13,415 bases of DNA from a virus (lineage: Duplodnaviria > Heunggongvirae > Uroviricota > Caudoviricetes). Location of the stretch: positions 1 to 13,415 of IMG/VR virus record IMGVR_UViG_2654587746_000003; one strand, 5' to 3'. Positions 9,044 through 10,249 of this stretch are shown piece after piece. The position numbers and the translations under genes were made by a program. The notes under the pieces were generated by a model that made no database searches, had not been told where the DNA came from, and saw nothing but the letters and a program-made list of their open reading frames with translations. Position 1 is the first letter of the stretch. Each line of letters starts with the position of its first letter.

Positions 9044-10249
9044 TTAATTACTGACAGTTTCAGGTTTCGGGAAACTGAACAGTAAATCACGGTAGTATTC
9101 GTATTGTTTCTGGCGCAACTCGATTTCACGCGGGAGACCTTCAGTGATGGAGTTGGTCAGGGTGTCGAATTTATCGAGTATTTCGACAATGCGAGCTTGT
9201 TCTTCTGAAGGTGGTACAGGTATTGGGAATTTTAAAAACATTGGTCGACGAAGTGAGGTAACCGATGAACTTACTGATGCTTTTTGAATATAGGTAAAAA
9301 AATATGCTGTTATATAGTGATATACAAATCGCGGATTCATAAATGCATTTGGGACAATACGATATGCTCTCTGATGCAAAGCATATTTACCTTTAGCGTA
9401 ATGAAATACCTTCCCCACCCCGGCACCATCTCCAGCTGTAATGATTGCTGTTTCATCAAAATCAAATACATTTAACTTTAATGGCTCACGTCCACGTGCA
9501 TAAAAAATATATTTGCCATGTTCTATAGCATCTTGCGTATCATGGTTACCTGTTCCTATAACAGCCACTTCCCCCAAAGTCTTCCACTCAACCTCACCCT
9601 CTTTAAAACTCAACAACTGGTCGCGATAGTAGTTGTACTGTTTTTTACGCATGTTAAGCTCAGCGGTAAGCTCAGCGGTAAGCTCAGCGGTAAGTGCAGT
9701 AAATTTATCCAGAATCCGAACGATTTCAGACTGGATGGCAAGAGACTTTTCTGGATTGTTTGAACAGGGAATTGGAATTTTAATTTTAGATAAATCGCCA
9801 CTGGAAACCCGTCGGACTTTAGCTCCAGTAATATATTTCATTTTTTGTGTTTGAAATATTTCGGACTGGAAGAAATAGGCGAGATATTTAACATTTTGCT
9901 CGTGGCGAAATAACATCATATCTCCGGAAATAGCAACGTTATCGCCAAGCCAGGCTAAAGGTTTTACTACATCTTCATCGTTTTCTGATGTTGTTGCTAG
10001 CAATAAGTCATTTTTTTGAGCCTTTCTCAGCTTATTGGCTAGTTCTGGAAGCACGTAAGTAAATGTTTTATCAGCTGATAACCCATACCTTGTATAAATC
10101 TGACCGTAATGTATTGCTGGAAAACCACTTTCAACGAAATCTTTTTTCTGTAGTCCATTGCCACGTATGAAATCGCCAAGCTCTCCCAGTGACAACCATT
10201 CAACATCAACTCCATCCAGCAATTTGTTCAGAAAGTTCAACCCACTCAT
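9044..10249 (-). CDS. hsdS: Type I specificity subunit (HsdS), Type IC, with (TAEL)3 central repeat
   Basis: Two target-recognition domains separated by the conserved [58 protein letters not shown], and a distal conserved [48 protein letters not shown] overlap with the hsdM stop. Confidence 0.93.
9656..9697. repeat. 12-bp tandem repeat (AAGCTCAGCGGT x3 plus a degenerate copy) encoding [12 protein letters not shown] in hsdS
   Basis: Perfect copies at 9657-9668, 9669-9680 and 9681-9692 (the minus-strand codon register is shifted by 1 nt). Also produces the artefactual + strand ORFs with LSGKLSGK and SSAVSSAV. Confidence 0.95.

Follow-up and report, generated by a model that had tools for sequence, protein, structure and literature searches.

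Does a short tandem repeat in the specificity gene of a phage-borne restriction–modification system set the spacing of the target that the system recognizes, and does the number of repeat units change in nature? The question is raised by an hsdS gene in a 13,415-nt stretch of tailed-phage DNA (hereafter the window; positions 1–13,415 of IMG/VR record IMGVR_UViG_2654587746_000003). A preliminary description had assigned this gene to the Type IC family, counted in it three perfect tandem copies of a 12-bp repeat that encodes TAEL plus a degenerate fourth copy, regarded the array as variable in length and predicted a bipartite target with an N7 spacer.

Direct reading of the window finds AAGCTCAGCGGT three times in perfect tandem, with 0 mismatches, at positions 9656–9691 of the + strand, and TRF reports the same array (9655–9694, period 12, 3.3 copies, 100% matches, score 80) as the strongest in the window, confirming the three copies. 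On the coding (−) strand the unit reads ACC GCT GAG CTT, or Thr-Ala-Glu-Leu (T-A-E-L), in frame within the 401-codon hsdS. The three units, ACCGCTGAGCTT on that strand, encode HsdS residues 187–198 and lie, in gene order, at 9691–9680, 9679–9668 and 9667–9656. Directly upstream of them in the gene is a degenerate 9-nt remnant, ACTGCACTT (9692–9700, − strand; ACT GCA CTT, T-A-L, residues 184–186), which is without the GAG (Glu) codon and shares 7 of its 9 positions with the unit. What had been counted as a degenerate fourth copy is thus present, but only as this 9-nt T-A-L remnant, and it extends 3 nt past position 9697, where it had been taken to end. A perfect 3 × 12 period is expected 6e-11 times per window of equal length and composition and was absent from 300 shuffles of the window, which excludes a chance origin of the tract. 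TRF found no further array inside hsdS or upstream of it.

The genes around the tract identify the family. Their order is hsdM–hsdS–hsdR, all on the − strand, with hsdM and hsdS coupled by a 4-nt overlap and hsdR standing apart across a 121-nt gap, which is the Type IC arrangement. The hsdM product (10246–11808, − strand; 520 aa) is about 98% identical to EcoR124 HsdM (PDB 7bst_D; about 10 differences in 519 aligned residues), and the hsdR product (5806–8922, − strand; 1038 aa) matches EcoR124 HsdR over its full length (PDB 2w00_A; 2293 bits across residues 1–1038) and carries the Pfam domain EcoR124_C (E = 9e-71). Type I families were originally defined by experiment, through complementation between subunits or cross-reacting antibodies; in sequence, members of a family have HsdM and HsdR subunits more than about 70% similar to the prototypes of that family, and both window subunits are that similar to theirs. 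The intact hsdS (9044–10249, − strand; 401 aa), whose start overlaps the hsdM stop in the 4-nt sequence ATGA, has two Methylase_S stretches (Pfam), and among solved structures its product is closest to the EcoR124 specificity subunit. The two proteins match in their conserved regions (N-terminal, central and distal), the central one differing by an extra TAEL unit in the window. Because HsdM, HsdR and the conserved regions of HsdS all match EcoR124, the locus is Type IC, as had been proposed; with none of its three genes truncated or frameshifted, the system is intact.

The repeat number would be irrelevant in this host if the system were silent or defective there. A scan for promoters and terminators around the operon performed at chance level and was left unused, and IS-like DNA bounds the segment, both of which would fit such a silent system. 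We consider it improbable, however, given three full-length genes without a frameshift and an HsdM about 98% identical to that of the active EcoR124 enzyme; moreover, tracts of more than three units were seen only where hsdM or hsdS is broken (see below), which suggests that intact loci such as that of the window are under selection.

Alignment, Pfam and an AlphaFold (AF2) model together give the layout of HsdS as TRD1, a central conserved helix with the TAEL repeats, TRD2 and a distal conserved helix. In the model (mean pLDDT 81.9) residues 166–212 form a single continuous helix that includes the TAEL residues 187–198, and residues 348–391 form a second helix, its antiparallel partner. The first corresponds to the central conserved region in the EcoR124 alignment (9614–9754, − strand) and the second to positions 9077–9208 (− strand). 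In the three-copy form, 17 residues separate ILDKF from RKKQY in the central helix, and 17 likewise separate ILDKF from RQKQY in the distal helix. This equality fits the view, expressed in a review of Type I enzymes, that three TAEL copies are optimal (PMC3874165).

The spacing mechanism that depends on TAEL repeats has been known since 1989, and we read the window by analogy with the characterized members of the family. The TAEL tract lies in the first of two long antiparallel helices that keep the TRDs apart; each 12-nt unit adds four residues, roughly one helical turn, and an extra unit would shift and rotate the two TRDs by the equivalent of about one DNA base pair. A three-copy HsdS would then be the ‘long’ form, in which the adenines methylated by M2S1 are 8 nt apart, as in EcoR124II, EcoDXXI and EcoprrI, and sister alleles with two copies would recognize the same two half-sites one base pair closer together. 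A perfect 36-nt direct repeat could gain or lose units through replication slippage or unequal crossing-over, and each such change would flip the specificity of an otherwise unchanged hsdMSR operon on a P1-like phage-plasmid. We put the probability that this explanation as a whole is correct at roughly 90%; the effect on target spacing, the m6A methylation and the mutational mechanism are the parts of it that we infer from the family.

The characterized systems follow this pattern. The 12-bp repeat is present twice in EcoR124I (GAA N6 RTCG) and three times in EcoR124II (GAA N7 RTCG), which bears out the precedent cited in the preliminary description; EcoDXXI and EcoprrI have three copies each, hybrids (EcoDXXI, EcoDR/RD) behave as predicted, and the change in copy number arises via unequal crossing-over (PMC3874165). 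EcoR124I and EcoR124II, the Type IC enzymes of plasmids R124 and R124/3, share with the window both the 12-nt TAEL unit and the T-A-L remnant, and the three-copy state of EcoR124II is that of the window. They differ from it in being carried on a conjugative plasmid, whereas the window copy is in a P1-like phage-plasmid, and in both TRDs, which are unrelated at the sequence level. EcoDXXI (TCA N7 RTTC) and EcoprrI (CCA N7 RTGC), which we compared by description (PMC3874165), resemble the window in their three TAEL copies; the window differs from the EcoDXXI/EcoprrI entry in that it has no prrC between hsdS and hsdR, where there is only the 121-nt gap. In Neisseria gonorrhoeae, natural strains vary in the number of a tetra-amino-acid repeat in the Type IC enzyme NgoAV, and the motif lengthens from GAC N6 TGC with one LEAT unit to GAC N7 TGC with two (PMC6789123). 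NgoAV differs from the window in its repeat (LEAT), in its offset (one unit corresponds to N6), in having an extra poly-G frameshift switch and in being chromosomal.

Copy number could instead have no effect on specificity for this particular pair of TRDs, either because both forms recognize the same target or because the three-copy form is relaxed, so that the variation would be a neutral polymorphism. Nothing direct speaks for this, although the review calls it unclear how the coiled coil accommodates the change of register (PMC3874165). The tested Type IC cases, namely EcoR124I/II, the EcoDR/RD hybrids and the LEAT repeat of NgoAV, all shift by 1 bp per unit (PMC3874165, PMC6789123), and the conserved regions of the window protein match EcoR124 save for the extra TAEL unit. 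We therefore regard an absence of effect as very unlikely.

Although three copies do mark the long form, the predicted N7 spacer needs to be restated. The plasmid-borne Type IC system RM.EcoST101IX (Eco067II) also has three TAEL copies in the same conserved region of HsdS; it differs from the window in its TRD pair and in its location, on F-type plasmids within Tn6602 (bioRxiv 10.1101/2020.06.07.138552). Its motif determined by SMRT sequencing is CC(m6A)G N6 RTTG (bioRxiv 10.1101/2020.06.07.138552), in which the interval G + N6 + R amounts to 8 nt, assuming that the second methylated base pairs with the first T, as it does in EcoDXXI. An interval of 8 between methyl-adenines is likewise listed for three-copy enzymes of the EcoR124II type (PMC3874165). 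Copy number thus fixes the interval between the methylated adenines and not the count of N; because the number of bases specified by each TRD varies, the written motif may be N6, N7 or N8. It follows that an N6 motif, which had been named as a refutation, is invalid as one on its own: a three-copy enzyme, EcoST101IX, methylates CCAG N6 RTTG. The safe prediction for the window, by analogy with these enzymes, is that the methylated adenines should be 8 nt apart, one base more than in the two-copy sisters.

The half-sites themselves depend on the TRDs. TRD1 is N-terminal (about residues 19–158; 9776–10195, − strand) and TRD2, delimited by alignment and searches, is C-terminal (about residues 222–346; 9212–9586, − strand). 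Both variable domains barely align with EcoR124 HsdS, and because the TRDs are unrelated at the sequence level, the half-sites of the window are not GAA and RTCG. Searched in isolation, neither TRD1 nor TRD2 has a relative among solved structures. TRD1 is 42% identical to the C-terminal TRD of EcoST101IX, which reads RTTG and is the sole characterized TRD retrieved for comparison, an identity too distant for the RTTG specificity to be transferred; TRD2 shares about 25% identity with each of the two EcoST101IX TRDs, and a close solved or characterized relative of it was not found. The alignment of TRDs to characterized enzymes, put forward as a way to predict the half-sites, accordingly yielded no half-site. 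A published methylome of the window HsdS allele was not found in the literature, nor was anything usable for P1-like plasmids, and the ST101 preprint deals with other alleles (bioRxiv 10.1101/2020.06.07.138552). Among other E. coli alleles, TRD1 pairs with many different TRD2s and TRD2 with other TRD1s; these pairings reflect the modular shuffling of TRDs that is usual in such systems.

Both flanks of the hsd genes are collinear with P1 and with P1-like (IncY) phage-plasmids, and the best matches of the window are P1-like (IncY) plasmids and phages. One flank of the cassette carries pmgP, ppp, pmgQ, pmgS and pap (pap at 5035–5541, + strand) and the other carries phd, doc, pdcA and pdcB, with the phd–doc addiction module at 11985–12586 (+ strand). 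P1 itself has pmgT to humD between pap and phd (P1 reference annotation), and we rejected an earlier candidate placement, in which the hsd cassette stood in place of P1 res/mod: by the P1 annotation it replaces pmgT to humD, between pap and phd. The same annotation records 96–98% identity between the DNA right after pap and right before phd and the sequences that flank the EcoDXXI and R124/3 hsd loci; EcoDXXI therefore has the same P1-derived flanks near pap and phd as the window, and the pap–phd site is a known home of Type IC loci.

Two overlapping pmgO/pmgP-like ORFs (840–1502 and 1400–2026, + strand), which overlap in P1 likewise, have weak, sub-threshold matches to an MptE-like family and are otherwise unremarkable. 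The pdcB ORF (12798–13331, 177 aa) is shortened relative to P1 pdcB. Both ends of the window (1–362 and 13286–13415) leave P1 homology and match high-copy DNA shared by thousands of enterobacterial plasmids; IS-type features are annotated close by.

Natural versions of the window allele with two repeat units exist. Combined with the same TRD1 and TRD2, two TAEL copies are present in pCFS3292-3, pGF31-A and the Escherichia fergusonii plasmid p18B233LT1, and three in the window, pHNTH9F11-2 and a set of IncN plasmids, which substantiates the proposed variability in length. A 1.6-kb DNA alignment resolves two hsd haplotypes, one comprising the window and pCFS3292-3 and the other pHNTH9F11-2, pGF31-A and p18B233LT1; because each haplotype holds both copy numbers, the change happened at least twice. 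The E. fergusonii plasmids p22C021LT2 (three copies) and p18B233LT1 (two) have 0 mismatches across 34,694 bp of shared backbone and differ by one 12-nt unit. These records are assemblies, in which a tandem repeat may be miscalled in a single record, yet several independent records represent each state. On the strength of these alignments, TAEL copy number is still switching in nature on near-identical plasmids.

How often it switches is a separate matter. The locus could be a true contingency locus that switches at high frequency, so that, as in a phasevarion, two- and three-copy cells, with two methylomes, would coexist in a host culture. Plasmids identical across 34.7 kb save for one unit, a change seen on two haplotypes, and decayed loci with 5 or 8 perfect copies (below) all point to a mutable tract. 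We nevertheless consider frequent switching unlikely. Known phase-variable tracts consist of shorter units in longer runs than the mere three 12-nt units present here, and TRF finds no long simple-sequence tract of the phasevarion type (many units of 1–7 nt) in or before hsdS. The variation is seen between isolates, and every complete assembly shows a single state. A switch would also leave the chromosome unmethylated at the new target, which would be costly unless restriction alleviation acts. Three 12-nt units make a short tract, and the rate of switching may consequently be low, within the reading that we prefer, in which gain or loss of a unit flips the specificity.

Among viral contigs, exact-context scans found two copies at 20 loci and three at 9, and no locus with one or four. 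In E. coli, we took 60 evenly spaced records from the 1363 that match the central region and read their length against a three-copy query: 24 had the three-copy length, 32 were 12 nt shorter (two copies), 2 were 24 nt longer (five copies) and 2 were uninterpretable. About 40% of the sampled E. coli Type IC hsdS genes therefore have three copies and about 53% have two. Together with the viral counts, this makes three copies a common state and not an unusual one. A protein collection was rejected as a source of copy numbers: none of its top 120 representatives had three copies, and three RefSeq HsdS proteins with three copies were absent from it. Because it contradicts the DNA collections, frequencies were taken from the DNA scans. 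One-copy HsdS proteins do occur in the protein collection (P0032, P0072 and P0117).

Longer tracts were found in E. coli. Five perfect TAEL copies were checked in the sequence of two loci, in strain SH21PTE31 (positions 412–1647 of locus L037), where hsdM is a pseudogene, and in JA0265 (409–1167 of locus L038), where ISEc45 cuts hsdS. Altogether, 16 E. coli chromosome records, most of them from pig isolates, contain this 204-nt five-copy tract. In two isolates from broilers, 33-6 and 58-3, the tract is 36 nt longer than the five-copy query; in 33-6, the one of the two whose sequence was checked, eight perfect TAEL units span 96 nt (978–1073 of locus L043), the longest tract seen. That locus is dead, as IS1 has replaced hsdM and the 5′ end of hsdS. 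Every inspected context of a tract of more than three copies, in three lineages only, was thus a broken locus. Within the limits of three lineages, this suggests a mutable tract whose length in working systems is kept at two or three units by selection.

A speculative extension, to which we assign a low probability, is that the TAEL tract of P1-like phage-plasmids is a contingency switch that acts at low frequency and is used when near-identical elements compete, with functional loci held by selection at two or three units. If so, a change of one unit would give a lineage that restricts its own sisters and escapes restriction by them, and tracts of 5–8 units would arise freely once the system is broken. 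Equally speculative is the alternative that five-copy alleles encode working enzymes whose target has an unusually long gap.

The window carries an uncharacterized allele of a well-known family with a well-known mechanism, and because that mechanism has been on record since 1989, the main value of the finding is that it permits correct annotation: the window hsdS is to be annotated as the long-spacer form of a Type IC specificity subunit, and its two-copy sisters as a different specificity. Because the two- and three-copy forms would differ in specificity, a barrier to transfer is expected between plasmids and hosts that look alike in gene content. The natural isogenic pairs, which differ by one 12-nt unit in 34.7 kb, provide material for studying how the coiled coil accommodates a one-turn change in one of its helices, and could be used to gauge the frequency of specificity switching in phage-plasmids that spread resistance genes.

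Two further features concern hsdS and hsdM. The IncN plasmid pCCRI24236-2 (201–1448 of locus L004) encodes the TRD1 and TRD2 of the window with three TAEL copies, and its HsdS carries, from the central helix to TRD2, an inserted stretch of 14 aa, DDEHEKPIYLEKLLDGV, which duplicates the YLEKLLDGVEVEW motif of the N terminus; there is also a two-copy version (P0012, 411 aa). In the window hsdM, positions 10331–10354 (− strand) hold a perfect 2 × 12 tandem, TGCTGAGCTGAA on the coding strand, that encodes AELN-AELK in the C-terminal helix of HsdM and has GCTGAGCT in common with the TAEL unit (chance expectation 0.0009 per window). EcoR124 HsdM has the AELN-AELK peptide as well, and in the other hsd haplotype the tandem is imperfect.
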